Positions 5,713 to 61,504 of a DNA stretch of 64,000 nt are shown in pieces. Positions within the stretch are counted from its first letter, which is position 1. Every line of letters starts with the position of its first letter. A program made the position numbers and the translations under genes. The notes beneath the pieces are model-generated. The model saw only the letters and a program-made list of their open reading frames with translations. It was not told the origin of the DNA and did no database searches. Source of the stretch: Bacteroidetes bacterium UBA7674 (GTDB lineage: Bacteria; Bacteroidota; Bacteroidia; Chitinophagales; Chitinophagaceae); NCBI GenBank assembly GCA_002483105.1, contig DLHG01000011.1:190497-254496 (forward strand). Direction: 5' to 3'.

Positions 5713-7830
5713 TTATAGTTCTATCCATGCCTTGGTCTTAAGGCTGTCTATTGCGGCAATGCTTGCGCGTGATGTGTTGATGAGTTCTTCTATGGGTATC
5801 AGTGCGCTGCCGCCTGTCTTTATTTTTTCCATCAGCAATTTGAACTGCGCGTTATGTCCCTTATCCTGGCTGGCCGACTCAGAAGAGAAATTGTTGAATC
5901 CAAAGCCTTTCAGCTTCTTCCAGTTCTCCATCACCAGGGTTCTTTCCTGGCTATAGACTTCTACACGTTCTTTCTCGTATGCTTTGCTGCCGTTGGCGAA
6001 GTAATTGATCACAGCATTGGAACCATTCTCATACTGTAACAGTATCGTAGCGTTGTCTGTATTCTCTGCCGGATGAACACCCATTGCATTCATACACACT
6101 GCTTTCACCAGCGAACCGGTTAGATATGTGCAGAGGTCTATAAAGTGGCAGGCTTCCCCTATTATACGCCCCCCACCTGTTTCCATATCGTGCAGCCAGT
6201 TGTTAGCAGGTATGTACCCTGCGTTTACGTTGGCAACAATATTCATGGGTGCTTCTCCATTGCCCAGCAGACGTTTCATCTTCACTGCCAGCGATGCGAA
6301 ACGACGATTATAACCTACGCTCAGCGTCTGATTGTTTTGTTCATAAGCATCTATCACACCATCCAGCTCTTCATGCGTCAGTGCCAATGGCTTTTCTACA
6401 AACACATGTTTCTTTGCCTTCAGTGCTTCTTCCACCATATGCGCATGTTGGTTGTGCCTGGTGGTGATGAATACGATGTCTATGTCACTATCCTGTAGTA
6501 TGCTTTTATAATCCGTTGTGGCACCGCCTATGCCATGTTTCTTCGCAAGCGTTACGCCCGAGAGTCCCGCTGCGCTGGCTATTGTTTTAATATCTGTATT
6601 GCAGGCTTTCAATGCAGGTAATACAATGGCTCCTGTGAAATTCCCTGAGCCTATGATGCCCGCTATACCTTTCTGCCCGTTGAAACTACGCTCACTCAAC
6701 TTGATGGTATGTTCCAGCGGTGTATTGTCATTATAACTAATGATGGTCGCAATAGAGTTGGGTTTACTCATGTTGCCATACACCTTCCGGTAATCGCTCA
6801 GGGGTATTCGTTCTGTTATCAGCGATTGTACTTCCAGTTGTCCGCTTGCCAGTGCTTGCAGCACGGTTTCAAAATTTCGTTTCTCTGTCCAACGCACAAA
6901 GCCAATAGGGTAGTCAACACCTTTTTGTTCATACACACTATCATATCTCCCCGGCCCGTAAGAGCAGCTCACCTGGAAGCTCAGTTCTTTTTCAAAGAAG
7001 TCTGCACGGCTAATGTTCAGTCCCACTACACCTACCAATACTATGCGCCCGCGCTTGCGGCTCATCTGTGCTGACTGTGCTATTATATCATCGCCTTTAC
7101 TTGAGGCTGTTATAATCACTGCATCTGCACCTATCCCATTAGTGAGAGAGGTGACGAATTTTACAGTATCTGTTCCTTCACCAGGGTTCACAGTAATGAT
7201 ACCTTTCGCTGCTGCCAGCAATAATTTATTGCTGTCGTAGTCTATACCTATCACACGGCAACCGTTCGCTTTCAGTAGTTGTGCGGTCAGTTGCCCTATC
7301 AGGCCCATACCTACTACCACGACTGTTTCGCCAAATGTCGGGTTCACCAATCTAATGCCTTGCAAGCCTATGGCACCTATCACGGTAAAGGCTGCTTCCT
7401 CATCACTTATCTCATCCGGTATTTTCGCCACAAGGTTCTGTGGTATGCACACTATCTCCGCATGATTGCCATTAGAGGCTACGCGGTCACCTATTTTAAA
7501 TTCAGTTACGCCTTTGCCTATCGCTATCACTTTACCTACGTTGCAGTAGCCCAGTGGTATAGGTTGCCCCAGTTTATTGAAAACAGCGTTGATGGTTGGT
7601 TTAAGTCCGTCGGTCTTTATTTTGTTCAGCACCATTTTCACCCTGTCGGGTTGCTGACGTGCTTTGTTTATCCATCCTGCTTTGCCAAACTCTACCAGCA
7701 TACGTTCCGTTCCCAGCGATAACAAGCTACGACTGGTGCGTATCAGCACGGCGCCGTTCCTTACCATTGGGGCAGGTACGTCTTCAAGTATGGTATCTCC
7801 GTTTTTTAGGTCCTGGATGATCTGTTTCAT
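5713..7830 (-). CDS. bi-domain oxidoreductase (zinc-type alcohol dehydrogenase/MDR N-half fused to Gfo/Idh/MocA C-half)
   Basis: 705 aa; MDR-like N-half with Rossmann VVVVGMGLIGQL; second Rossmann GIAGIIGSGNFTG plus EKP motif (VFVEKPLA) of Gfo/Idh/MocA. Confidence 0.75.
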   Translation of the reverse strand: MKQIIQDLKNGDTILEDVPAPMVRNGAVLIRTSRSLLSLGTERMLVEFGKAGWINKARQQPDRVKMVLNKIKTDGLKPTINAVFNKLGQPIPLGYCNVGKVIAIGKGVTEFKIGDRVASNGNHAEIVCIPQNLVAKIPDEISDEEAAFTVIGAIGLQGIRLVNPTFGETVVVVGMGLIGQLTAQLLKANGCRVIGIDYDSNKLLLAAAKGIITVNPGEGTDTVKFVTSLTNGIGADAVIITASSKGDDIIAQSAQMSRKRGRIVLVGVVGLNISRADFFEKELSFQVSCSYGPGRYDSVYEQKGVDYPIGFVRWTEKRNFETVLQALASGQLEVQSLITERIPLSDYRKVYGNMSKPNSIATIISYNDNTPLEHTIKLSERSFNGQKGIAGIIGSGNFTGAIVLPALKACNTDIKTIASAAGLSGVTLAKKHGIGGATTDYKSILQDSDIDIVFITTRHNQHAHMVEEALKAKKHVFVEKPLALTHEELDGVIDAYEQNNQTLSVGYNRRFASLAVKMKRLLGNGEAPMNIVANVNAGYIPANNWLHDMETGGGRIIGEACHFIDLCTYLTGSLVKAVCMNAMGVHPAENTDNATILLQYENGSNAVINYFANGSKAYEKERVEVYSQERTLVMENWKKLKGFGFNNFSSESASQDKGHNAQFKLLMEKIKTGGSALIPIEELINTSRASIAAIDSLKTKAWIEL

Positions 7831-19314: not shown

Positions 19315-19328
19315 TGAATGTCACTCCC

Positions 19329-19352
19329 GTCATTGCGAGGAACGAAGCAATC
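19329..19352 (+). repeat. dispersed palindromic repeat GTCATTGCGAGGAACGAAGCAATC
   Basis: attgc...gcaat stem; related copies at 32713, 52072 (inverted), 28418, 31332. Confidence 0.7.
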
Positions 19353-19449
19353 TAATCGGCACGACCATCAGAATAATACTCACTTTAACACTGGTCTGAG
19401 TATTTACTCAGACCCAACATAGAGCAAGCATTTGCTTGCTTCCTGAACA

Positions 19450-22241: not shown

Positions 22242-22269
22242 ATAGCCCCATTTCAGGGGCTATTTTTTT
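22242..22269 (+). terminator. rho-independent terminator (bidirectional hairpin)
   Basis: tagcccc attt(c)a ggggcta followed by TTTTTTT; 47 nt after the TlpA-like stop. Confidence 0.65.
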
Positions 22270-22270
22270 G

Positions 22271-22337
22271 TGTAGCGAGGAGGAGATTTGAACTCCCGAG
22301 CTCAGGGTATGAATCCCGCTCGGCATAGTCTCCTCGC
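22271..22337 (-). pseudogene. degenerate tRNA(CAU)-like remnant (intact 3-prime half, no foldable D-arm)
   Basis: Reverse complement reads GCGAGGAGACTATGCCGAGCGGGATTCATACCCTGAGCTCGGGAGTTCAAATCTCCTCCTCGCTACA; the last 46 nt match the 3-prime half of the tRNA at 23893-23966 apart from 1 indel and 1 substitution; the 5-prime part cannot form a D-stem. Confidence 0.55.
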
Positions 22338-23892: not shown

Positions 23893-23966
23893 GGCGAGGT
23901 AGCTCAGTTGGTTAGAGCACAGGATTCATAACCCTGAGGTCGGGAGTTCAAATCTCCTCCTCGCTA
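23893..23966 (+). tRNA. tRNA with CAU anticodon (elongator Met; Ile2/lysidine type not excluded)
   Basis: Hand-folded cloverleaf: GGCGAGG/TA/GCTC-AGTTGGTTA-GAGC/A/CAGGA-TTCATAA-CCCTG/AGGTC/GGGAG-TTCAAAT-CTCCT/CCTCGCT/A; CCA not encoded. Confidence 0.85.
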
Positions 23967-23972
23967 CACAGA

Positions 23973-23996
23973 AAGCCCCTTTCAGGGGCTTTTTTT
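23973..23996 (+). terminator. rho-independent terminator after tRNA
   Basis: aagcccct ttc aggggctt followed by a T-run. Confidence 0.7.
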
Positions 23997-31377: not shown

Positions 31378-32712
31378 TTAGCCAACCACCTCACCCTCCA
31401 GATCATAATCATACGCCTTCGTTATCCGCACATTCACGAAATCACCTATTGGCAGTTTCTTCTCACTCTGTATGATCACTTCATTATCCACTTCCACACT
31501 ATCAAACTCAGTACGGGCTAAATAACGTCCCGCTTCCAGTTTATCAACAATTACTTTAAATTCTTTACCAACATACTCCTGGTTCTTCTCGTAAGATATC
31601 TCCTGCTGCACTTCCATTATCTCTTGCGCACGTGCTTCTTTCTCTTCAGCCGGAATATTGTCCACCAACTCATGTGCACTCGTATTCTCTTCATGCGAAT
31701 AAGTAAAGATACCTACACGATCCAGCCTTACATCTTCCAAAAACTGCTTCAGCTGATCCACATCTTCCCTCGTTTCACCCGGGAAGCCAGCTATCAGCGT
31801 GCTGCGTATAGCAATGCCCGGCACCTTATCACGTATCGCAGCCACAAGATCATAGATCTCCTGCGTCTCCATATGGCGTTTCATCGCCTTCAGCATATTG
31901 TTAGAGATATGCTGAAGCGGCATATCCAGGTAATTACAAATGTTGTCCCTTTCCCTCATCACGTCCAGTATGTCCATCGGGAACTTGGTAGGGTAGGCAT
32001 AGTGCAAACGTATCCATTGCAGACCCGGCACATCCGACAGATGTTTCAGCAATTCAGATAACGCCCTCTTTTTATAAATGTCCAGTCCGTAGTAGGTCAG
32101 TTCCTGTGCTATCAGCATCACTTCCTTCACACCCATGCGCACGAGGTTCTTGGCCTCAGCTACAACTTCTTCAATAGTCTTCGAAACGTGGCCACCACGC
32201 ATCAGCGGTATCGCGCAGAAAGAACAAGTACGATTGCAACCCTCAGATATCTTCAGGTAAGCATAGTGCTTTGGTGTAGCCAATAAACGCTCACCCAACA
32301 GCTCCGCCTTATAATCAGCATTGAACTGCTTCATGATCTGAGGCAACTCCATCGTCCCAAACCACGCATCCACCTCAGGTATCTCCTTCATCAGGTCGTT
32401 GCGGTAGCGTTCGCTCAGGCAACCCGTGATGTAAACCTTGTCCAACTTACCTTCCCGCTTCAGGTCCACCTGTTCCAGTATCATGTTGACGCTTTCCTCT
32501 TTCGCTTTATCTATAAAGCCACAAGTATTCACCACCACGATATTGTGATCCATCTTCTCGCTCTCATGCGCCACTTTTATGCCATTGGCATTCAGCTGGC
32601 CGCTCAGCACCTCACTATCCACCATATTCTTGGAGCATCCAAGAGTAATGATGTTTACCTTATCCTTCTTTAGCGTTCTGGTCTTCAATATTTTTAATTT
32701 TTTTTTAATCAC
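31378..32712 (-). CDS. rimO: ribosomal protein S12 methylthiotransferase
   Basis: 444 aa; UPF0004 N-domain, radical-SAM CNRTCSFCAIP, C-terminal TRAM domain. Confidence 0.9.
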   Translation of the reverse strand: MIKKKLKILKTRTLKKDKVNIITLGCSKNMVDSEVLSGQLNANGIKVAHESEKMDHNIVVVNTCGFIDKAKEESVNMILEQVDLKREGKLDKVYITGCLSERYRNDLMKEIPEVDAWFGTMELPQIMKQFNADYKAELLGERLLATPKHYAYLKISEGCNRTCSFCAIPLMRGGHVSKTIEEVVAEAKNLVRMGVKEVMLIAQELTYYGLDIYKKRALSELLKHLSDVPGLQWIRLHYAYPTKFPMDILDVMRERDNICNYLDMPLQHISNNMLKAMKRHMETQEIYDLVAAIRDKVPGIAIRSTLIAGFPGETREDVDQLKQFLEDVRLDRVGIFTYSHEENTSAHELVDNIPAEEKEARAQEIMEVQQEISYEKNQEYVGKEFKVIVDKLEAGRYLARTEFDSVEVDNEVIIQSEKKLPIGDFVNVRITKAYDYDLEGEVVG

Positions 32713-32736
32713 GTCATTGCGAGGAACGAAGCAACC
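32713..32736 (+). repeat. dispersed palindromic repeat GTCATTGCGAGGAACGAAGCAACC
   Basis: 23 of 24 identical to the copy at 19329. Confidence 0.7.
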
Positions 32737-32867
32737 TCACGAAACACTCTTGCTCTCCCGTTTGTATTTCACTTCACACGTCCCCTCTTGAGAGGGGTAG
32801 GGGTGTGTTGACTCGCGCCTCATCCTTTTTCGGGAGCCACGGTTAATCCTTTAATCCCAGTTCAAAC

Positions 32868-34190: not shown

Positions 34191-34280
34191 TAACTTTGAA
34201 TTTTAGCGTGCAAAGGTACGTCAATTATATGGGTTTTTTGGCTATGAATTGGGTAAATTGCTGTTAAATGCACCAAGACT

Positions 34281-34323
34281 CTCCTCCTTTTTTCAAGGAG
34301 GAGTACCCGCAGGGGGAGGTGGT
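34281..34323 (+). repeat. 43-bp repeat ctcctccttttttcaaggaggagtacccgcagggggaggtggt
   Basis: 42 of 43 identical to the reverse complement of 39650-39692; internally palindromic (cctcctt...aaggagg). Confidence 0.8.
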
Positions 34324-39649: not shown

Positions 39650-39692
39650 ACCACCTCCCCCTTCGGGTACTCCTCCTTGAAAAAAGGAGGAG
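39650..39692 (-). repeat. inverted partner of the 43-bp repeat at 34281
   Basis: accacctcccccttcgggtactcctccttgaaaaaaggaggag; 42 of 43 match after reverse complement. Confidence 0.8.
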
Positions 39693-39930
39693 AGTTGCGG
39701 GATTTATGATTGACCCGGCTCCATAGATAGATTGTAAAGGTACGAAGGTGGTGCCGTGTGGAGAAAAAGACATATCCACATAGGATACACATGAGGTGGT
39801 GGGTAGCTTCAAAAACGGAAGTTGGTTCGCTCTTTGTCTTCATCGCAGCTTTTCAACAGCCTTTCGACGGGGCTCAGGGGGACAACGCTATTGAGTTTAG
39901 ATTGTTTCATTCTTCGCAATGACACGAGTA

Positions 39931-49269: not shown

Positions 49270-49354
49270 AACGGTTCTATTATGGGTATGTAATATACGC
49301 CATTTCTTAGAGGGTAGTCTGAACCGGGATTTTTGGGAATTGGTTGTGGCTGTT

Positions 49355-49402
49355 GCAAACTGCCATTATTTACTGCCACAAGTGAAAAACACTTGCGGCA
49401 GC
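49355..49402 (+). repeat. repeat module X (hairpin ctgccacaagtg-aaaaa-cacttgcggcag)
   Basis: Copies at 53498-53544 and partial at 51812-51838. Confidence 0.7.
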
Positions 49403-49495
49403 AGTAGGAGGATTTGTAGACGCATTACAAACGCTATTCCCGTGCATCCTCGTTGCAAACGAGGACGAGATGGGTGGGGAGCACTTGCGTGAGTG

Positions 49496-49583
49496 GACAC
49501 CACCCCCCAAAACTCACCGCACCGCTATCGCGGAGGCGTTGAGTTTTGACCCCTCCTCCGAAAGGAGGGGTATCGTGATTGTT
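49496..49583 (+). repeat. repeat module Y (two hairpins: aaaactca.cgcaccgc...gagtttt and cccctcctcc-gaa-aggagggg)
   Basis: About 95 percent identical by eye to 53547-53633; first hairpin also at 46816-46856. Confidence 0.8.
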
Positions 49584-51838: not shown

Positions 51839-51842
51839 GGGG

Positions 51843-51946
51843 GTAGAAGCATCGAATGAGCTTTAGCCTAAGTGCTGCCGGGCACAGCCCTTCGTTTTAT
51901 TTGTTTGATTTAAGTTACGCTGACGCTAAACTTAAACCAGTGGGGG
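51843..51946 (+). repeat. repeat module Z (about 104 bp, contains hairpin gatttaagtt-acgctgacgct-aaacttaaacc)
   Basis: Direct copy at 53660-53763, roughly 85 percent identical by eye. Confidence 0.8.
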
Positions 51947-52071
51947 TTGTTGAATTTAATGAGGCATAAGCAGCCCTAAATGCAAGTTAGACTGTGGTTA
52001 GGTCATAGCAATGAAAATGTGGATATCTTATAGCAAAAACATATCCACATTAAGGTACTGATGTTTCGTGA

Positions 52072-52095
52072 GGTTGCTTCGTGCCTCGCAATGAC
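52072..52095 (-). repeat. dispersed repeat GTCATTGCGAGGCACGAAGCAACC (inverted orientation)
   Basis: ggttgcttcgtgcctcgcaatgac is the reverse complement of the 19329/32713 family. Confidence 0.7.
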
Positions 52096-52235
52096 GTGAG
52101 TAGGTTGTATATTGCCCAATCAGGAGATTGACTGCCGCTGCGACGTAGTCAGAGACTACACCGAGCGGAGGGCGGAGACCCGTTTTACTGTTTAGGCACG
52201 GTGACCCTTCGGAACACCCGCACCAGTGGGGTGCA

Positions 52236-52871: not shown

Positions 52872-53309
52872 CTACCTGGCTTGCCAGCCTGTCGCATCTG
52901 TTGGTATTTGCAGTGTGACTTTTTTTCTGCCATTGCCTGCATCTGCTATGTCTTCTTCCAGATCTTCAATTTCATCGACATCCATTTCTGGAGCCTGGCG
53001 ATCATGAATTTGCCTGGTAGGCGCCGGCTTGTGTGTGGGCTGTATACTTGCACATTGGTATGCAATTGTGTTATACCATTGATTTACATAGTTGCATTGC
53101 TGGAAATACCAGTAGTTTAAGTTGTTCAGGCAATAGGCCCAATTAAAGCCACAATAACTTCCGGCGTTGGTATAATAGTGGTAATACATCTGGTTAACCC
53201 CTTGTGCATAATGCTGTAGTTGCATCACCGCATTAGAGCAAGAGGTCTGGGCGGTTGAATTGGAATTCAGTATTAACAGTAGGCTGAAAAATGAAATGAC
53301 CCTTTTCAT
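52872..53309 (-). CDS. hypothetical secreted Cys/Tyr/Trp/Asn-rich protein with acidic tail
   Basis: 145 aa; signal peptide; 6 Cys and many YY/WY pairs; EMDVDEIEDLEEDIAD segment; 33 nt upstream of the metallopeptidase gene. Confidence 0.4.
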   Translation of the reverse strand: MKRVISFFSLLLILNSNSTAQTSCSNAVMQLQHYAQGVNQMYYHYYTNAGSYCGFNWAYCLNNLNYWYFQQCNYVNQWYNTIAYQCASIQPTHKPAPTRQIHDRQAPEMDVDEIEDLEEDIADAGNGRKKVTLQIPTDATGWQAR

Positions 53310-53497
53310 AACTATGATTTTATCGTTTTGAAATATTTACATTTGATAATGTAAACCTAGATCAGCGGATAGTATCAATAGTTATTAAAAAAACGGTTTT
53401 TATATGTGAAAAATACCCTACCAAATATTTGGAGAGTTTTGTACGTGGGCTTTGGGATAGGTATTGATCAAGGGGGGCTGTAGCCCGCCTGGCAGAA

Positions 53498-53544
53498 GCA
53501 AACTGCCATTATTTATTACCACAAGTGAAAAACACGTGCGCGAG
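53498..53544 (+). repeat. repeat module X
   Basis: gcaaactgccattatttattaccacaagtgaaaaacacgtgcg, matches 49355-49397. Confidence 0.7.
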
Positions 53545-53546
53545 TA

Positions 53547-53633
53547 GACACCACCCCCAAAACTCAACGCACCGCTATCGCGGAGGCGTCGAGTTTTGAC
53601 CCCTCCTCCGAAAGGAGGGGTATCGCGATTGTT
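53547..53633 (+). repeat. repeat module Y
   Basis: Matches 49496-49583. Confidence 0.8.
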
Positions 53634-53659
53634 TTGGTTTTGGGCTTGTCGGGAGGTAG

Positions 53660-53763
53660 GTAGTGGCATCGATTGAGCTTCAGGCTAATTGCTAACGAGC
53701 ACAGCCCTGCGTTGTATTTGTTTGGTTTAGGTTACGCTGACGCTAAACTTAAACCAGTGGGGG
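53660..53763 (+). repeat. repeat module Z; also the likely terminator of the minus-strand defence-like operon
   Basis: Matches 51843-51946; ends 2 nt before the stop codon (53765-53767) of the CBS-HEPN gene. Confidence 0.8.
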
Positions 53764-53764
53764 A

Positions 53765-54808
53765 TTATTTGGTTTTTACTTTTAAGGTCGCTGTTATCGT
53801 ATTTAGAAATGAGACAGTTTGGCGCAAAAGATCAAGGTCTTGTGATGTGATTCCGTCGGGATCAAAATGCATAACATCATTTCGTATTTTTCTCACTTCT
53901 TCTAATTGTTTTGCAATAAGTGTCCTGTCAATATTTAACTTTAATTTTTCAAACTTTTTGGGATCTTCAATTATCCTAACATACTGTCCGAATGTTAGGT
54001 CTGCTAGGTTCTTTATCTCCTTAGTTTTCTCAATATTCGACATTGAAGCATTTAGTTCTTCAGCGTCAAATTTTTGATCGAAGAGTTTTCTGATATGATT
54101 TTCAATTTGTTCAATTATTAGAAACGGTTCTGCCATTGCAATAAATTGTTCTCCAATATCAGTGATAGTTACAATGCCACTTATAGTCTTATCTTTCTGT
54201 CTAACAAGAACAACTTCTTTGTCTAATACAAACTTCACTGCGCTGAACAAAGGCTCATCGTAATTTAAAATTATAACCTCGTCTTTACAGTCTACTGCTT
54301 TAACACAATGTTTGCCTAGGGAAATTGCCCTGCCGATTGATTTCCAGCTAACTATTCCATCTACCTCTCGTTGCCCTGATAGTATTGGCAATTGAGAGAA
54401 ATCGTGCAATAACATTAAGGTAATAGCCTCGTTTAAAGATGTTTCACGATTAATGCTTATGAGGCCTGTTCCCAAGCCAGTTTCCTTCACTTTATTGATA
54501 TTCGCTGCCTTTAATAGACTTATTCGGGGAGTCGGATCTCTATCCTCAAATTCACTTTCTTTACTTTTCGTCGATAGCTTTGGGCGAGGTTTTATTTCGA
54601 TTTCTCCATAAAACCATGCACTTGCAATATCTGGCTCGCTTACAACGTCATACTTATTAAGTAGAAAGTTTATTTTGTCAATTACTTTCCACCCACGTCT
54701 AGCAACTCCTAAATATGCAGTTGCTATATAGGGATAAGTCGTAATTGATTTTTTAGTTTTATGAACTTCACTTAATATCTCTTCGAAATTTAGCTTGTTG
54801 TCACTCAT
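53765..54808 (-). CDS. CBS-pair protein with C-terminal HEPN (Rx4H) domain
   Basis: 347 aa; CBS1 LISINRETSLNEAITLMLLHDFSQLPIL...VDGIVS, CBS2 VIILNYDEPLFSAVKFVL...ISGIVTITDI; C-terminal EEVRKIRNDVMHFD, with R309-N-D-V-M-H314 at nt 53867-53884. Confidence 0.65.
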   Translation of the reverse strand: MSDNKLNFEEILSEVHKTKKSITTYPYIATAYLGVARRGWKVIDKINFLLNKYDVVSEPDIASAWFYGEIEIKPRPKLSTKSKESEFEDRDPTPRISLLKAANINKVKETGLGTGLISINRETSLNEAITLMLLHDFSQLPILSGQREVDGIVSWKSIGRAISLGKHCVKAVDCKDEVIILNYDEPLFSAVKFVLDKEVVLVRQKDKTISGIVTITDIGEQFIAMAEPFLIIEQIENHIRKLFDQKFDAEELNASMSNIEKTKEIKNLADLTFGQYVRIIEDPKKFEKLKLNIDRTLIAKQLEEVRKIRNDVMHFDPDGITSQDLDLLRQTVSFLNTITATLKVKTK

Positions 54809-54843
54809 AGAGATTTTATAAAAACAGGTTTTGGGAACTAGTA

Positions 54844-55413
54844 TTATATATTTGCTGAAACAAACTCATATAATCCTGAAAATGACTTACACTTTGTTTT
54901 TACTGTATTTAGGTTTAAGTTCTTAGCAAGCACCGTATTATGCTTTGTATTAATGTACACTTTGGAATTATCTGAAAAGGTTCTAATAAGTCGTCCTAAA
55001 GTTTCTTTTGGGGAATCTATTGTTTCGGGATTCCCAGTGATTTTGGGACTTTTTTTAAGGTTAAATGATTTTTTGATGGAAGCTGGGTCAGCCAGTATCC
55101 AAGCTTCCATCTCCTGTATAGGAATGCATATGTAGGAATGTCTGATCGGATTAGGTTTTATATTTTTTTCAAGTAATAGTTTCAGATCCTGGATATTATT
55201 GCTGTCGAGGTCATGAATTAATATTAAAACGTTACATCCTCTTAGTTGTAATTGTTTTGCCCAATCTGAACATTTTCTTTTGATTTTCCCGCAACCTCTA
55301 CCTACAAATCTTTTATAACTAAGATTAGACTTGCCAGTAATTCTCGCGATAAGCTCTTTTAGTGTATCTACGTCACTTTCATCTTCAGCGATAATGCCTA
55401 TTTTTTTACTCAT
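54844..55413 (-). CDS. DUF4276-like, TOPRIM-fold-like protein
   Basis: ORF trimmed to Met12 (ATG 55411-55413), 189 aa; IGIIAEDESD (Glu), NVLILIHDLDSN (DxD), IPIQEMEAWILAD; start overlaps the ATPase stop (ATGAGTAA). Confidence 0.6.
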   Translation of the reverse strand: MSKKIGIIAEDESDVDTLKELIARITGKSNLSYKRFVGRGCGKIKRKCSDWAKQLQLRGCNVLILIHDLDSNNIQDLKLLLEKNIKPNPIRHSYICIPIQEMEAWILADPASIKKSFNLKKSPKITGNPETIDSPKETLGRLIRTFSDNSKVYINTKHNTVLAKNLNLNTVKTKCKSFSGLYEFVSANI

Positions 55414-56635
55414 TCTCAAAACCTCCTTCCTTCCAATATTCACCAAGATTTCCAGATTCTGTTAAATAGATTTTCAATGCTTGATAATCATTCTTTGACA
55501 GAGCAGTTGTCAATTTTGAGGCAGTAGTTCCTTTGCCTTTTTCTTTTTTTACAATTACAATATTCTCTGGAGATAATTTATCTAATACAAAATCCGAGTG
55601 CGTACTTATTATTATTTGTTTATTTTCATTGTCAAGTATTAAGCTTAATACACTATTGAGCAGACCATGATGAACACAGACTTCTGGTTCTTCTATTAAA
55701 AGGATTCTGTTTTCGTCTGTTAGAATATAAAAAACTAAGGCAAGGGTTTTGAATGTGCCTTCTGATAATTGATTTGGAGACAATAAATACCCATCGATAT
55801 CTATACATGGTACAATTATCTGTCTGCTTCTTTCTATCTTAAGAATTTTCCCTCCAGACTTAACTTTATAACTATTAGAAGGAATATCTACCTCATCGAA
55901 TCGAAGGTCATTAATCAAACCAATGCCATTTGTGTTAACCGTTGAAATGAATTTTTCAAAAGTTTTTTTATTATTCTTATATGTAAAGTATAAATCACTT
56001 AAAAATATCTCGTGAGTTGAGCTTCGTAAATTAGATCGCCCAAGACGATGGTCTTCAATTTCGATTGATATTGGACACTTCGTAGGGTCTGAGAACTGAC
56101 TTGCGCTATAATAACTTTGATGTTTTAAATATTTAACTACGGAGATAATAATCTTGATGTCATCTCTAGTACAGTCGATTTGTCTAGTATCATAATAGAA
56201 GAAAATTCTCTCATTTATTTGTCTAGGATGATGTCTGTACAATTCAAACGCTTCAGGGATAATATCAATCCATTTTCCATTACCATTTATATTTCTAAGA
56301 TTAATTTTTAAAAATGAAGCCTTCACTTCGTCATTATTCTTGTCGTCTGTTTCAATAAAAATGTCACCTTTTATATATATATCTTTACCATTGTCATTAA
56401 GTGTCATTTGAATATTCGTACTAGTTTCAAATCCATATTGTTTCCTGAATTCTTTAATAGAACGCGAATATCGATCCCCTCGAGTCTTCTTAAATAATTG
56501 TAGTGCATTTAAAATATTGCTTTTGCCTACTCCATTTATCCCTATTAGGCATGTGAGTTTGGGATTTAAATCAAATTTAGTTTTCAAGCATGACCTATAA
56601 TTGTCAACTTGGAATTTTGTTATTCTCATTTTCAA
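55406..56635 (-). CDS. ABC/SMC/RecF-like ATPase (AAA_15/AAA_21 type)
   Basis: 409 aa; Walker A GINGVGKS (56519-56542), LSEGTFK signature-like, Walker B ILLIEEPE, H-loop ISTHSD; no TM segment. Confidence 0.8.
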   Translation of the reverse strand: MKMRITKFQVDNYRSCLKTKFDLNPKLTCLIGINGVGKSNILNALQLFKKTRGDRYSRSIKEFRKQYGFETSTNIQMTLNDNGKDIYIKGDIFIETDDKNNDEVKASFLKINLRNINGNGKWIDIIPEAFELYRHHPRQINERIFFYYDTRQIDCTRDDIKIIISVVKYLKHQSYYSASQFSDPTKCPISIEIEDHRLGRSNLRSSTHEIFLSDLYFTYKNNKKTFEKFISTVNTNGIGLINDLRFDEVDIPSNSYKVKSGGKILKIERSRQIIVPCIDIDGYLLSPNQLSEGTFKTLALVFYILTDENRILLIEEPEVCVHHGLLNSVLSLILDNENKQIIISTHSDFVLDKLSPENIVIVKKEKGKGTTASKLTTALSKNDYQALKIYLTESGNLGEYWKEGGFENE

Positions 56636-56738
56636 GAATGTTGTGGGATAAAAGTATAATTCTATAATTACAAATTAACCAGTCAAAAGACGGTACTCAT
56701 CAATTATTTTGCCCCTACCATATATGCACAAAATATCG

Positions 56739-56746
56739 TAACTTTG
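56739..56746 (+). promoter_or_regulatory. TAnnTTTG -7 box (TAACTTTG) upstream of ileS
   Basis: Consensus match 30 nt before ATG 56776. Confidence 0.45.
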
Positions 56747-56775
56747 CGCCTTATTTTTAGCTTTGGGTGAGGTCT

Positions 56776-59700
56776 ATGTTGGATAAATATAAGGAATACA
56801 AGCAGTTAAGCATGCCGGCCATAGAAAAGGAGATCCTTGATCTGTGGAAGGAAACAAAAGCATTTGAAAAGAGTGTCAGCCAGAGAGAGGGGGCAGTGCC
56901 GTTCGTATTTTATGAAGGTCCGCCCAGTGCTAATGGTATGCCCGGCATTCACCACGTAATTTCCCGCACATTAAAGGACCTTGTCTGCCGTTACAAAACG
57001 ATGCAGGGTTACCAGGTAAAGCGTAAGGCTGGTTGGGATACCCATGGCCTGCCGGTAGAGCTGGGTGTGGAAAAGGAATTGGGCATCACGAAGGAAGATA
57101 TAGGCATCAAAATAAGTGTAGAGGACTATAACAAGAAGTGCCGTGAAGTGGTGATGCGCTACAAGGATAAGTGGGAAGAGATCACTGAGAAGATGGGGTA
57201 TTGGGTGGATATGACAGACCCGTACATCACTTTCGATAATAAATATATAGAAACACTGTGGTGGGCGCTGAAGCAGCTTTATGATAAGGACTACTTATAT
57301 AAGAGCGTCAGCATACAACCTTATTCGCCTGCTGCGGGCACAGGGCTGAGCAGCCATGAGCTGAATCAGCCGGGTACTTATAAGGATGTGAAGGATACTA
57401 CGGTGGTGGCGATGTTTGAGTTGAGCAAGATCAGCGGACAGTCGCACAACCAGTTGCAGATAGCCATACATGATATAGCGATCAAGGCATGGGCACCATA
57501 TGTGCAGCAGCCGATAGGTGGGGGTATGGCATCTGCCGAAGAAGCCGGCAGGGTACACTTTATGGCCTGGACGACCACTCCGTGGACGTTACCGAGCAAC
57601 TGCGGACTGACCGTAGGTCCGAACATAGACTACGTACTGGTGCAGACGTTCAACCCTTATACGCATAAGCCTGCGAATGTGATATTGGCCAAGCCGCTGC
57701 TGGGTAAATACTTTAAACCGGAAGGGGAGCATGCCGACTTCAGTATATATACTGCTGAGGAGAAGGTGTTGCCATGGAAGATACTGGCTGAATATAAAGG
57801 TAAGGACCTTGAAGGGCTCAGGTATGAGCAACTGATACCAACCGAAGGTAATACCCGCGAGATAGCCGGTGGTGATCCGTGGAGAGTGATAACGGGTGAC
57901 TTCGTGACGACTGAAGATGGTACGGGTATCGTGCATACTGCACCGGCCTTTGGTGCGGATGACTATAAGGTGGGCAAGAAAGCCAACATCGGGATACTGG
58001 TGATGGTGGACAAAGAGGGCAAGTTCATAGACTATATGAGCGAGTTCAGCGGCAGGTATGTAAAGAATTATAAGAACGATACGGAATATAAAGACGTGGA
58101 CGTGGATATAGCCGTGAAGCTGAAGCTAAGCGGTAATGCCTTTAAAGTAGAGAAATACGAACACACCTATCCGCACTGCTGGAGAACGGATAAGCCGATC
58201 ATATACTATCCGCTGGATGCGTGGTTCATACGTACCACGGCAGTGAAGGACAGGATGATAGAGCTGAACAAGACCATCAACTGGAAGCCTAAGGCGACAG
58301 GAGAGGGTAGGTTTGGTAACTGGCTGGAGAACATGGTGGACTGGAACCTGAGCCGTAGCCGCTTCTGGGGAACGCCGTTGCCTGTATGGGTGAGTGAAGA
58401 TGGTAGTGAAGTAAAATGCATCGGCTCGATAGAAGAACTGATGGATGAGGTGAAGAAAGCCAATAAGGAATTACACCTGAACCAGCTGCTGGATGATGAA
58501 TACCACAAGAGTGAAGGACTGAAAGTAGTAGAGAAGCTGACAATGGGCCTGATACATGATAAACATGTGCCGAGCCAGTTGGACCTGCATAAGCCATTCG
58601 TTGACCAGATAATACTGGTGAGCGATAGCGGTAAGCCGATGCATCGTGAGCCGGACCTGGTGGATGTATGGTTTGATAGTGGCGCAATGCCCTATGCGCA
58701 GCTGCACTACCCGTTCGAGAACAAAGGACAGTTGAAATATAATTTCCCTGCTGACTTCATAGCCGAAGGCGTGGATCAGACGAGGGGATGGTTCTATACG
58801 CTGCATGCACTGGGTGTGATGTTGTTTGATAACGTTGCCTATAAGACGGTTGTCTCTAATGGCCTTGTTCTGGATAAGAACGGGAACAAGATGAGTAAGC
58901 GTGTGGGCAATGTGGTAGATCCGTTTGAAACACTGGAAAAATACAGCGCTGATGCAACGAGGTGGTACCTCATCACCAATGCTTCTCCGTGGGATAGCCT
59001 GAAGTTTGACCTGGAAGGTATAAAGGAAGTGCAGCGTAAGTACTTCGGTACTTTATATAATACTTATCAATTCTTCGCGTTGTATGCTAACGTGGATAAG
59101 TTCACCTTTAAAGAAAGGTATATCCCGGTACATAAACGTCCGGAGATAGACAGGTGGATACTTTCTTCGCTGCATACATTGGTGAAAGATGTGACCAAAT
59201 ACATGGACGACTATGAGCCTACACAGGCGGGTAGGGCCATGGAGTACTTCCTGGATGAGCACCTGAGTAACTGGTATGTAAGGCTTTGCCGCCGCCGGTT
59301 CTGGAAAGGAGAATATGAGCATGATAAGATATGTGCGTATCAAACGTTATATGAATGTTTGGAAACACTGACCCTGTTGATGGCCCCGATAGCTCCGTTC
59401 TTCTCTGACTGGATGTATAAAAACCTGAATTCGGTGACCCACCGTCTGCCGGGTAATGCATCCGTTCACCTGGCAGATTTCCCGGCTGTGGATGAGAGTG
59501 TGATAGATACCGAGCTTGAAGAAAGGATGCAAATGGCACAGGATATATCCTCGCTGGTACTGTCCATCAGGAAGAAAGTGAACATACGTGTAAGACAACC
59601 CCTACAGAAGATATTGATACCCGTAATGGACAAACACATGCGGGAGCAGATACAGAAAATAGAGGAGCTGATAAAGAACGAGGTGAATGTAAAGCAATTC

Positions 59701-60265: not shown

Positions 60266-61504
60266 ATGGCCACACAAAAAAAACCGGCTGCCAAGCCAAT
60301 CAAGAATGCAAAAGCATCTGCAAAACCTGCAAAGAAGGCCGCACCGGCCAAAAAAGTTGTGGCGACTAATAAGAAGGGAAATGTAGCGAAGAAAGCCGCT
60401 CCAGCTAAAAAGGTAGTAAAACCTGTAGCAAAAAAGGCCGCACCCGCTAAGAAGACTGAGAACAAAAAGGCGGCGCCTGCTCCTAAAAAAGTGGCACCTG
60501 CGAAGGCTAATTCAAAAAAAGGAACAAAAACTGTGAGTAAAGCAAACGATAAAGCAAAGAAGGCAGCACCTGCAAAGAAGGCTGCTCCGGCAAAGAAAGC
60601 GGCAGTTGCACCTAAGAAGGCAGCACCTGCCAAGAAAGCTGCTCCTGCTAAAAAGGCGGCACCTGCTCCTAAGAAAGCGGCTCCTGTAGCAAAGAAGGCA
60701 GCACCTGCTCCTAAGAAAGCAGAAGTGAAAAAAGCACCTGCAAAAGTAGAAGCGAAAAAAGCTGCTCCTGTAAAACCAACACCTGCTCCTGCTAAGGCGG
60801 AAATAAAAAAGGGCCCGGTAGCGAAACCCCAGGAAGCGCCTATGAAAGGCTCACCTGCTGATAAGGCGCCCGAAGCAGCCCCTGCAAAGAAAGGCAAGAA
60901 AGTAAAAGCACCTGTGAAGAAAATAATAGTACAGACTATTACACATACTTCATCGAGGCCGATGCCTAACCGCCAGGCTTTGCGTGAAGAAAAGAAACCA
61001 ACGGTAGTGATCGCTCACCGCCGCCTAGAGAATAAATCAAAGAAAGACGACAATAACAAAACAATGGTGAGTTACCAACCGGAAACTTACCGTTCAATAT
61101 TAGACGAACCACAACAACAAACTGGACCAGTGTACAGATATAGCGACGAGGAACTTAACGAGTTCAAAGAATTGATAACAGGACGCCTGGAAGCAGCGCG
61201 TAAAGAGTTAGTTTACCTTCAAGGGTTGATAACACGTAAGGATGAAGCGGGTACAGAAGATACTGAGAACCGCTACATGAATATGGAAGATGGTAGCGGC
61301 GCTATGGAACGTGAGCAATTAGCTCAGCTTGCGAGCCGCCAGATACAGTTCATCAACCACCTGGAAAAGGCGATGATGCGTATTGAAAACAAAACGTATG
61401 GTATTTGCCGTGTAACGGGTAAGCTGATAGACAAAGCACGCCTTCGTGCTGTGCCGCATGCTACCTTGAGCATTGAGGCCAAGAATACAATGACGAAGAA
61501 GTAA
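60266..61504 (+). CDS. DksA/TraR-family regulator with about 285-aa Lys/Ala/Pro-rich (histone H1-like) N-terminal extension
   Basis: 412 aa; aa 1-217 are AKKAAPAKK-type repeats; C-terminal aa 290-412 (nt 61133-61504) YRYSDEELNEFKELI ... RIENKTYGICRVTGKLIDKARLRAVPHATLSIEAK matches the Bacteroidota DksA/TraR type. Confidence 0.7.
   Translation: MATQKKPAAKPIKNAKASAKPAKKAAPAKKVVATNKKGNVAKKAAPAKKVVKPVAKKAAPAKKTENKKAAPAPKKVAPAKANSKKGTKTVSKANDKAKKAAPAKKAAPAKKAAVAPKKAAPAKKAAPAKKAAPAPKKAAPVAKKAAPAPKKAEVKKAPAKVEAKKAAPVKPTPAPAKAEIKKGPVAKPQEAPMKGSPADKAPEAAPAKKGKKVKAPVKKIIVQTITHTSSRPMPNRQALREEKKPTVVIAHRRLENKSKKDDNNKTMVSYQPETYRSILDEPQQQTGPVYRYSDEELNEFKELITGRLEAARKELVYLQGLITRKDEAGTEDTENRYMNMEDGSGAMEREQLAQLASRQIQFINHLEKAMMRIENKTYGICRVTGKLIDKARLRAVPHATLSIEAKNTMTKK

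Follow-up and report, generated by a model that had tools for sequence, protein, structure and literature searches.

A 2.9-kb AT-rich block adjoining ileS, in a 64,000-nucleotide (nt) window of contig DLHG01000011.1 from Bacteroidetes bacterium UBA7674 (all positions below are those of this window unless another record is named), encodes on one strand an ABC-type ATPase (gene 1), a DUF4276 protein (gene 2) and a protein with a CBS pair and a HEPN domain (gene 3). The first-pass annotation of this stretch had joined the three genes into one undescribed three-part defence system with an architecture that bore no name. It is instead highly probable that the block is a defence islet in which two independent, already described anti-phage modules lie head to tail, a HEC-01-type pair (genes 1 and 2) and a DS-11 protein (gene 3), and it is held with the same high confidence that their proximity reflects co-location of the defence-island type and not a functional three-component machine. 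The seemingly novel three-gene architecture is accordingly corrected to two catalogued modules and ought not to be listed as a defence system of a new kind.

Gene 3 matches the NCBIfam model NF053863 (DS11_antiphage, CBS domain-containing anti-phage protein) at 6e-108, with 360.6 bits against a curated cut-off of 260, and positions 5-305 of the 305 in the model align with its residues 31-335. DS-11 is a one-protein CBS and HEPN anti-phage system that was validated in E. coli (DefensePredictor, PMC13092281). DS-11 lost its defence when Y157 of the CBS domain was mutated, and likewise when the catalytic residues of HEPN were, and its authors proposed that the HEPN nuclease is under the control of the CBS domain through binding of an unidentified adenine derivative (PMC13092281). 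The supplement of that study lists the protein as WP_000257686.1, encoded by a 1098-nt gene, together with the mutants R330A, H335A and Y157A (PMC13092281). The E. coli open reading frame (ORF) recovered here, of 365 amino acids (aa), carries Y157, R330 and H335 at exactly those positions and is 35% identical to gene 3 over 97% of the length (E 2e-72), the three residues mapping to F137, R309 and H314 of gene 3, respectively. Position 137 is either F or Y across the family, the exchange of Y for F being conservative, and R309, N310, M313 and H314 are invariant in 76 gene 3 homologues with identities down to 34%. The Pfam family HEPN_Swt1 matches 14 of the 76 family members, at best with 6.7e-5. 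The predicted model of gene 3 (pLDDT, the predicted local distance difference test score, 82.8) comprises the CBS pair and an all-helical C-terminal domain; a Foldseek search of the whole model against the PDB is uninformative on the HEPN domain because it returned CBS pairs only (~1e-7), and a profile search of the C-terminal part against the PDB gave no match. R309A and H314A had been put forward in the first-pass annotation as a test of gene 3; the residues were well chosen, but their exact equivalents, R330A and H335A, have already been assayed in E. coli DS-11 (PMC13092281). Judged by these sequence comparisons, gene 3 is a DS-11 family member that is predicted to work alone, and by analogy its CBS pair would bind a ligand. 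It provides a clean Bacteroidota example of the family in which the tested residues are conserved or conservatively replaced, and so speaks for the CBS-gated HEPN design being general.

The DS-11 family also has a conserved N-terminal domain that lies outside the published CBS and HEPN description, formed by residues 1-75 of gene 3 and present likewise in the E. coli protein (positions 5992-7089 of locus L176). Its predicted topology is helix-strand-helix-helix-strand-strand, with R37-R38-G39-W40 nearly invariant, and searches with this domain gave no Pfam family match, the only hits being weak ones to BT4734-like_N and to the PADLOC 'PrimPol' model (residues 13-46).

The relation of gene 3 to the other two genes was followed through its relatives. 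When GTDB was scanned with one genome for each species, 381 of these were found, from many phyla, and 80 of the loci, at 34-74% identity and with flanks of as much as 7 kb to either side, made up the synteny sample. When genes 1 and 2 were searched with phmmer against all ORFs of at least 60 aa, none of the 80 loci gave a match; matches beside gene 3 came only from the three contigs of the source genome. Pfam families were then assigned to the nearest two neighbours on either side (upstream, 124 ORFs, each of at most 800 aa; downstream, 128 ORFs), and the most frequent family reached no more than 3 of the 124 and 4 of the 128, with AAA_15, AAA_21 and DUF4276 each found in at most one upstream and one downstream neighbour. 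Genes recurring at these loci encode integrases, AbiEii, type I and ISP restriction components, T5orf172, GmrSD, HATPase_c_3 and transposases. The three closest metagenomic relatives of gene 3, at 72-74% identity, adjoin putAbiC, AIPR or a DEAD/ResIII/MZB helicase, the ATPase/DUF4276 pair being present at none of them, and at the E. coli DS-11 locus a neighbour is integrase-like while both an ATPase and a DUF4276 gene are missing. Across the 80 genome loci and the three close metagenomic relatives, then, no neighbour is conserved, in accord with the single-gene character of DS-11.

Some features of these loci are recorded for their own sake. DS-11 relatives lie repeatedly by genes of abortive-infection or defence type, the partner varying with lineage (putAbiC at L171 and L172, AIPR at L173 to L175, the DEAD/ResIII/MZB helicase at L170), and three loci (L013, L017 and L054) have in common two very large ORFs upstream, of approximately 950 and 1300 aa. 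The E. coli locus, L176, corresponds to NZ_CP141089.1, positions 3327499-3340572, from strain KE47; the record is labelled 'plasmid unnamed1', yet it is evidently a chromosome since it is 4.9 Mb long, and its DS-11 gene is missing from the PLSDB gene table.

Gene 1 exceeds the Pfam cut-offs of AAA_15 (1.8e-20) and AAA_21 (1.9e-19) and also matches SMC_N (5e-11). Its motifs include a Walker A sequence, GINGVGKS (56519-56542), a signature-like LSEGTFK, a Walker B sequence, ILLIEEPE, and an H-loop, STHS. In the PADLOC library the best match is AbiLi (1.2e-25), followed by HEC-01A (3e-24) and AriA (7e-24); Old and GajA models match as well, the five together spanning 1e-20 to 1e-25, and several HEC-01A models are matched between 3e-24 and 1e-15. 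The ATPase alone cannot discriminate among AbiLi, HEC-01A, AriA, Old and GajA systems, and gene 1 is best described as a predicted sensor or scaffold subunit of HEC-01A/AbiLi/AriA-like type. Its ORF opens with TTG, and gene callers place the start at ATG 56629, giving 407 aa with the N-terminus MRITKF; this is likely to be the true start, and the Walker lysine is K38 in the 409-aa numbering and K36 in the 407-aa numbering.

Gene 2 belongs to DUF4276 (Pfam 5.8e-17, 63 bits against a cut-off of 30.2) and has no other Pfam match. Twenty HEC-01B models of PADLOC match it, the best at 2.5e-14 over residues 1-186 with a 197-position model. The motifs IIAEDESD, LILIHDLD and IQEMEAW are present, and E10, D11, D68, D70, E101 and E103 are invariant among 30 gene 2 homologues. 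Its predicted model (pLDDT 94.9) shows the four-stranded alpha/beta core of the Toprim type, in which a conserved Glu follows strand 1 and DxD follows strand 3: residues 4-9 form strand 1 and are followed by E10, and residues 62-66 form strand 3 and are followed by D68-x-D70. DUF4276 has been published as a new member of the Toprim superfamily, homologous to Mad4 and with the same Glu/DxD arrangement (PMC12065111). The sole significant structural neighbour of the model is a viral RloB-like protein (Foldseek against BFVD, E 9.8e-4, template modelling scores 0.58/0.53), in keeping with the AbiLi-like character of gene 1. Taken with the model, these data point to gene 2 as a predicted Toprim-superfamily nuclease of HEC-01B type. 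The ORF could be extended to TTG 55446 (200 aa); ATG 55413 agrees with the starts of homologues and is preceded by AGGAGG.

In the reverse direction, 117 homologues of gene 2 were detected, all of them DUF4276 proteins, and 86 of the loci (80 from a metagenome scan) were examined for their surroundings. An ATPase resembling gene 1 lies directly upstream of DUF4276 in 76 of the 77 loci whose upstream sequence extends for 600 nt or more, whereas a hidden Markov model (HMM) of the DS-11 family matched in none of the 86, among them 45 with 700 nt or more downstream. It follows that genes 1 and 2 belong together obligately and that gene 3 is unassociated with them. The lone exception among the 77 is a metagenome contig (Ga0302325_10315392, locus L150) with DUF4276 at its positions 1986-2504 and no detectable gene 1-like ATPase in the approximately 2 kb upstream. 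In four annotated contexts, an overlapping AAA_15/AAA_21 ATPase of 404-420 aa precedes DUF4276; unrelated housekeeping genes flank the pair, and a CBS gene is absent. A tblastn search of gene 2 against plasmids gave no match.

HEC-01, to which genes 1 and 2 are assigned by their matches in the PADLOC HMM library, is a PADLOC candidate made up of an ABC ATPase together with a TOPRIM-like partner that shares the metal site of OLD (Payne et al., bioRxiv 10.1101/2024.01.29.577857). For HEC-04, a relative in which ATPase and TOPRIM are fused, the ATPase and nuclease sites were both needed (bioRxiv 10.1101/2024.01.29.577857). In a later study, a HEC-01 representative was reported to protect from one or more of the phages T4, T5 and T7 (PMC12881386).

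Within the window, the ORF scan returned the three genes as co-directional ORFs on the minus strand (Table 1). The stop of gene 1 and the start of gene 2 share 8 nt, ATGAGTAA (55406-55413), and the promoter/terminator scan found no terminator-like site on the minus strand in 53000-57000. Co-transcription of gene 3 with genes 1 and 2 is probable in view of the 35-nt junction that separates them, which lacks a terminator, and transcripts begun at the gene 1 promoter may plausibly read through into gene 3. GC content is 0.307, 0.332 and 0.351 in genes 1 to 3, against 0.466 in ileS and 0.438 in the whole window, and GC content at third codon positions is 0.25-0.29 in the three genes against 0.55 in ileS. 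A perfect AGGAGG lies at 55421-55426, within the 3' end of gene 1 and 8 nt upstream of the gene 2 ATG, and suggests Shine-Dalgarno-driven coupled translation of gene 2. Shine-Dalgarno sites are usually rare in Bacteroidota, the phylum of the closest relatives of these genes.

Much of the first-pass annotation has stood up. The three minus-strand ORFs, the 8-nt overlap and the 35-nt gap are as it gave them, the motifs it quoted for genes 1 to 3 are all present with K38, R309 and H314 correctly numbered, and the genes are AT-rich, at 31-35% GC compared with approximately 44-47% around them. Its reading of gene 1 as an ABC/SMC-type ATPase agrees with the AAA_15 and AAA_21 matches, that of gene 2 as a TOPRIM-like DUF4276 protein with the Pfam match and the Toprim-type arrangement of acidic residues, and that of gene 3 as a CBS pair plus HEPN with the Pfam CBS matches, the invariant R-N-x3-H and the HEPN_Swt1 matches in the family; the assignment to defence, too, was right, given the DS-11 and HEC-01 matches. 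The claim of a single undescribed three-part system fell with the synteny counts, the pair being found at 0 of 80 gene 3 loci and a gene 3 relative at 0 of 86 DUF4276 loci, and the architecture was called unnamed when its parts already had names, DS-11 (NF053863) for gene 3 and the PADLOC candidate HEC-01 for genes 1 and 2. The annotation had itself listed absent synteny and prior naming among the findings that would refute it, and both are what was found.

Several points weigh against the reading as two independent modules. The whole case is computational, and the first assay of HEC-01 saw no defence (bioRxiv 10.1101/2024.01.29.577857). For gene 2, a Foldseek search against the PDB gave a best E value of 8.6e-3 with no TOPRIM protein among the top 50, and a profile search against PDB sequences gave no match. 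HEPN_Swt1 lies under the Pfam threshold in gene 3 itself (E 0.028 for the isolated domain). Finally, the genes are co-directional, the 35-nt gap is free of a terminator, GC is uniformly low and the block has sharp edges at both ends; it follows from so tight a block that the three genes may have arrived jointly and may be co-transcribed, and cross-talk between them in this host is possible.

The short terminator-free junction and the AT-rich block with its sharp common borders would also fit two autonomous systems that were recently fused into one operon and cooperate in this lineage without constituting a conserved type, as would the habit of DS-11 relatives of lying beside other abortive-infection or defence genes. 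Such a composite could serve as layered or back-up immunity, or products of the Toprim nuclease could set off the HEPN activity. It is nevertheless considered improbable, as there is no evidence of co-evolution, the arrangement occurs in one genome only, and neither module lacks a part, each matching families that function or occur singly. A little less probable still is a more specific proposal, in which the CBS pair of DS-11 would sense an adenine-containing product of the ATPase/Toprim pair, or the ATP depletion it causes, giving a two-tier abortive response from one cooperating operon, or in which, separately, the N-terminal domain of DS-11 (R37-R38-G39-W40) would be a sensor of nucleic acid or of a phage protein; local coupling of the modules and a sensor role of this domain are possible but unsupported.

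The three-component system of the first-pass annotation, in which an ATPase sensor would control both a Toprim nuclease and a ligand-gated HEPN RNase, is very unlikely. It draws on the common strand, the tight spacing, the missing terminator between genes 2 and 3 and the shared AT-rich composition, and on the fact that all contigs with the exact gene 3 carry the trio. These contigs are, however, 100% identical to the window and therefore belong to the same genome, so that the arrangement is known from a single genome; elsewhere the association is absent from both synteny samples, and DS-11 protects alone in E. coli (PMC13092281), where its locus has no ATPase or DUF4276 neighbour. Low GC is generic to both modules: relative to their flanks, gene 3 homologues elsewhere are lower by a mean of 7.3 points (lower in 93% of loci) and ATPase-DUF4276 pairs by a mean of 9.2 points (lower in 100%). 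The shared composition is no argument for one unit, since either module, wherever found, is richer in AT than its flanks, and it was rejected as a sign that the three genes were acquired jointly. Rejected likewise was the reading of contig L002 as a variant locus with a broken ATPase, since this contig is 100% identical to the window plus scaffold gaps and represents an assembly artefact. A role outside defence, with gene 3 as a CBS transcriptional or metabolic regulator and genes 1 and 2 as a DNA-repair-type ATPase/nuclease pair, would agree with the JGI name 'predicted transcriptional regulator' of some homologues, with the winged-helix-like N-terminal topology of gene 3 and with weak matches of gene 1 to RecF, Rad50 and SMC, but is hardly credible given the NCBIfam equivalog match to an anti-phage protein that has been validated and whose catalytic residues are kept, the patchy distribution, the low GC, the integrase or defence-gene neighbours, and RecF and Rad50 scores far under the NCBIfam cut-offs.

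Under the preferred reading of two independent modules, the first (genes 1 and 2) would be an obligate HEC-01-type cassette, its translation coupled through the 8-nt overlap. By analogy with PARIS, OLD and AbiL, the ATPase would act as a sensor or scaffold and as an ATP-dependent switch which, upon a phage cue, would license the metal-dependent Toprim nuclease to cut nucleic acid. The second module, gene 3, would act alone as a DS-11 protein, its CBS pair presumably binding an adenine-containing ligand and so gating a HEPN RNase that would be dimeric, in line with the dimer published for DS-11, and would probably halt infection through RNA cleavage; gene 3 probably rides on the transcript of genes 1 and 2.

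Table 1. Coordinates of the three genes, their domains and residues, and the borders of the block
Feature	Position	Strand	Description
Gene 1 ORF	55406-56635	minus	409 aa from TTG
Gene 2 ORF	54844-55413	minus	189 aa from ATG
Gene 2 acidic residues	E10, 55384-55386; D68-x-D70, 55204-55212; E101-x-E103, 55105-55113	minus	
Gene 2-gene 3 junction	54809-54843	minus	between the two modules; 35-nt gap without a terminator-like hairpin
Gene 3 ORF	53765-54808	minus	347 aa
Gene 3 N-terminal winged-helix-like domain	54584-54808	minus	residues ~1-75, from the model; followed by a disordered linker
Gene 3 CBS pair	54167-54511	minus	residues ~100-214; Pfam CBS, two stretches
Gene 3 HEPN domain	53768-54166	minus	residues ~215-347; R309-N-D-V-M-H314 at 53867-53884
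Left border, repeat mosaic	53490-53763		dispersed host intergenic repeats, ~50% GC, adjoining the gene 3 stop codon
Divergent intergenic region, gene 1/ileS	56636-56766		131 nt, GC 0.321; presumed promoters of the gene 1-2(-3) transcript and of ileS

Both borders are as first annotated. On the right, the divergent stretch upstream of ileS separates gene 1 from the ileS start at 56767. A promoter-like site was returned at 56686-56659 on the minus strand; the scan yielded sites no more often than chance and does not model Bacteroidota promoters, and its promoter predictions are for these reasons uninformative here. On the left, the repeat mosaic is real, with other copies at 49347-49404 and 49482-49583 (that is, within 49347-49583) and at 51842-51946, and it lies outside both defence modules. 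The metagenome contigs L001 and L003 both end inside the repeat, at window position 53731. No tRNA or Rfam element marking an integration site was found near the block and no convincing direct repeats flank it; a 16-nt inverted pair (53389/54817) is at chance level. Neighbouring genes are of ordinary host types, encoding IleS, a DksA/TraR-type protein, HxlR, DoxX, RibD_C and an M48-like peptidase, and no helicase, methylase/methyltransferase or other mad gene was found among those flanking the pair.

Elsewhere in the window, several families of dispersed GC-rich intergenic repeats resemble repetitive extragenic palindromic (REP) sequences or miniature inverted-repeat transposable elements (MITEs), some being palindromic, with further sites at 19323-19353, 32706-32746, 34278-34323, 39650-39695 and 52062-52155. 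At 60266-61504, on the plus strand, a 412-aa protein combines a long Lys/Ala/Pro-rich N-terminal repeat region (AKKAAPAKK-type units, histone-H1-like), the DNA of which has tandem repeats at 60314-60709, with a C-terminal DksA/TraR C4 zinc finger. The sole tRNA of the window is a tRNA-Met (23893-23967), and a 44-nt inverted copy of its 3' part, 95% identical, lies approximately 1.6 kb upstream (22265-22308 versus 23893-23974); this copy may be a remnant of integration or rearrangement.

The trio is best compared with known systems module by module. MADS shares with the pair the DUF4276 family, which is that of Mad4; gene 1, however, scores 68.8 bits against a MAD3 cut-off of 420, gene 2 matches mad4 with an E value of 0.027 only, and the other mad genes and the methyltransferase were not found nearby. 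The likeness to AbiL lies in the AbiLi model being the best PADLOC match of gene 1 and in the RloB-like structural neighbour of gene 2, AbiLii being RloB-like; no AbiLii model of PADLOC matched gene 2 at E<=1. PARIS (AriA/AriB) and the OLD family (Gabija GajA, P2 Old) follow the same logic, in which an AAA_15/AAA_21 ATPase is combined with a Toprim-superfamily nuclease, and the tree of OLD-like systems in the PARIS paper includes AAA15/21 ATPases associated with DUF4276. Gene 2 differs from their nucleases in being DUF4276 and not DUF4435 (AriB) or TOPRIM_OLD, in its length of 189 aa compared with approximately 300 aa for AriB, and in giving no match to AriB models of PADLOC at E<=1.

The closest counterparts are HEC-01 and DS-11. 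Genes 1 and 2 match HEC-01A and HEC-01B models, gene 2 covering nearly the whole HEC-01B model, and they follow one another in the order, and with the overlap, that homologous pairs elsewhere also show. In its original definition HEC-01 is a pair embedded in Hma systems, whereas the pair stands alone in the four annotated homologous loci and here, where it is a stand-alone instance since no helicase or methylase flanks it; the synteny counts mark the ATPase and DUF4276 genes as a free-standing cassette of two, strictly coupled, which goes beyond the 'embedded' Hma component first described. Gene 3 has the same full-length architecture as DS-11, with N-terminal domain, CBS pair and HEPN domain, and an identical R-N-D-V-M-H motif. 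It differs in a shorter linker between N-terminal domain and CBS pair (347 versus 365 aa overall), in F for Y at the ligand-contact position, in phylum, its closest relatives being Bacteroidota, and in lying 35 nt downstream of another defence pair, while E. coli DS-11 stands alone. The three genes are new members of kinds already described, DS-11 and HEC-01.

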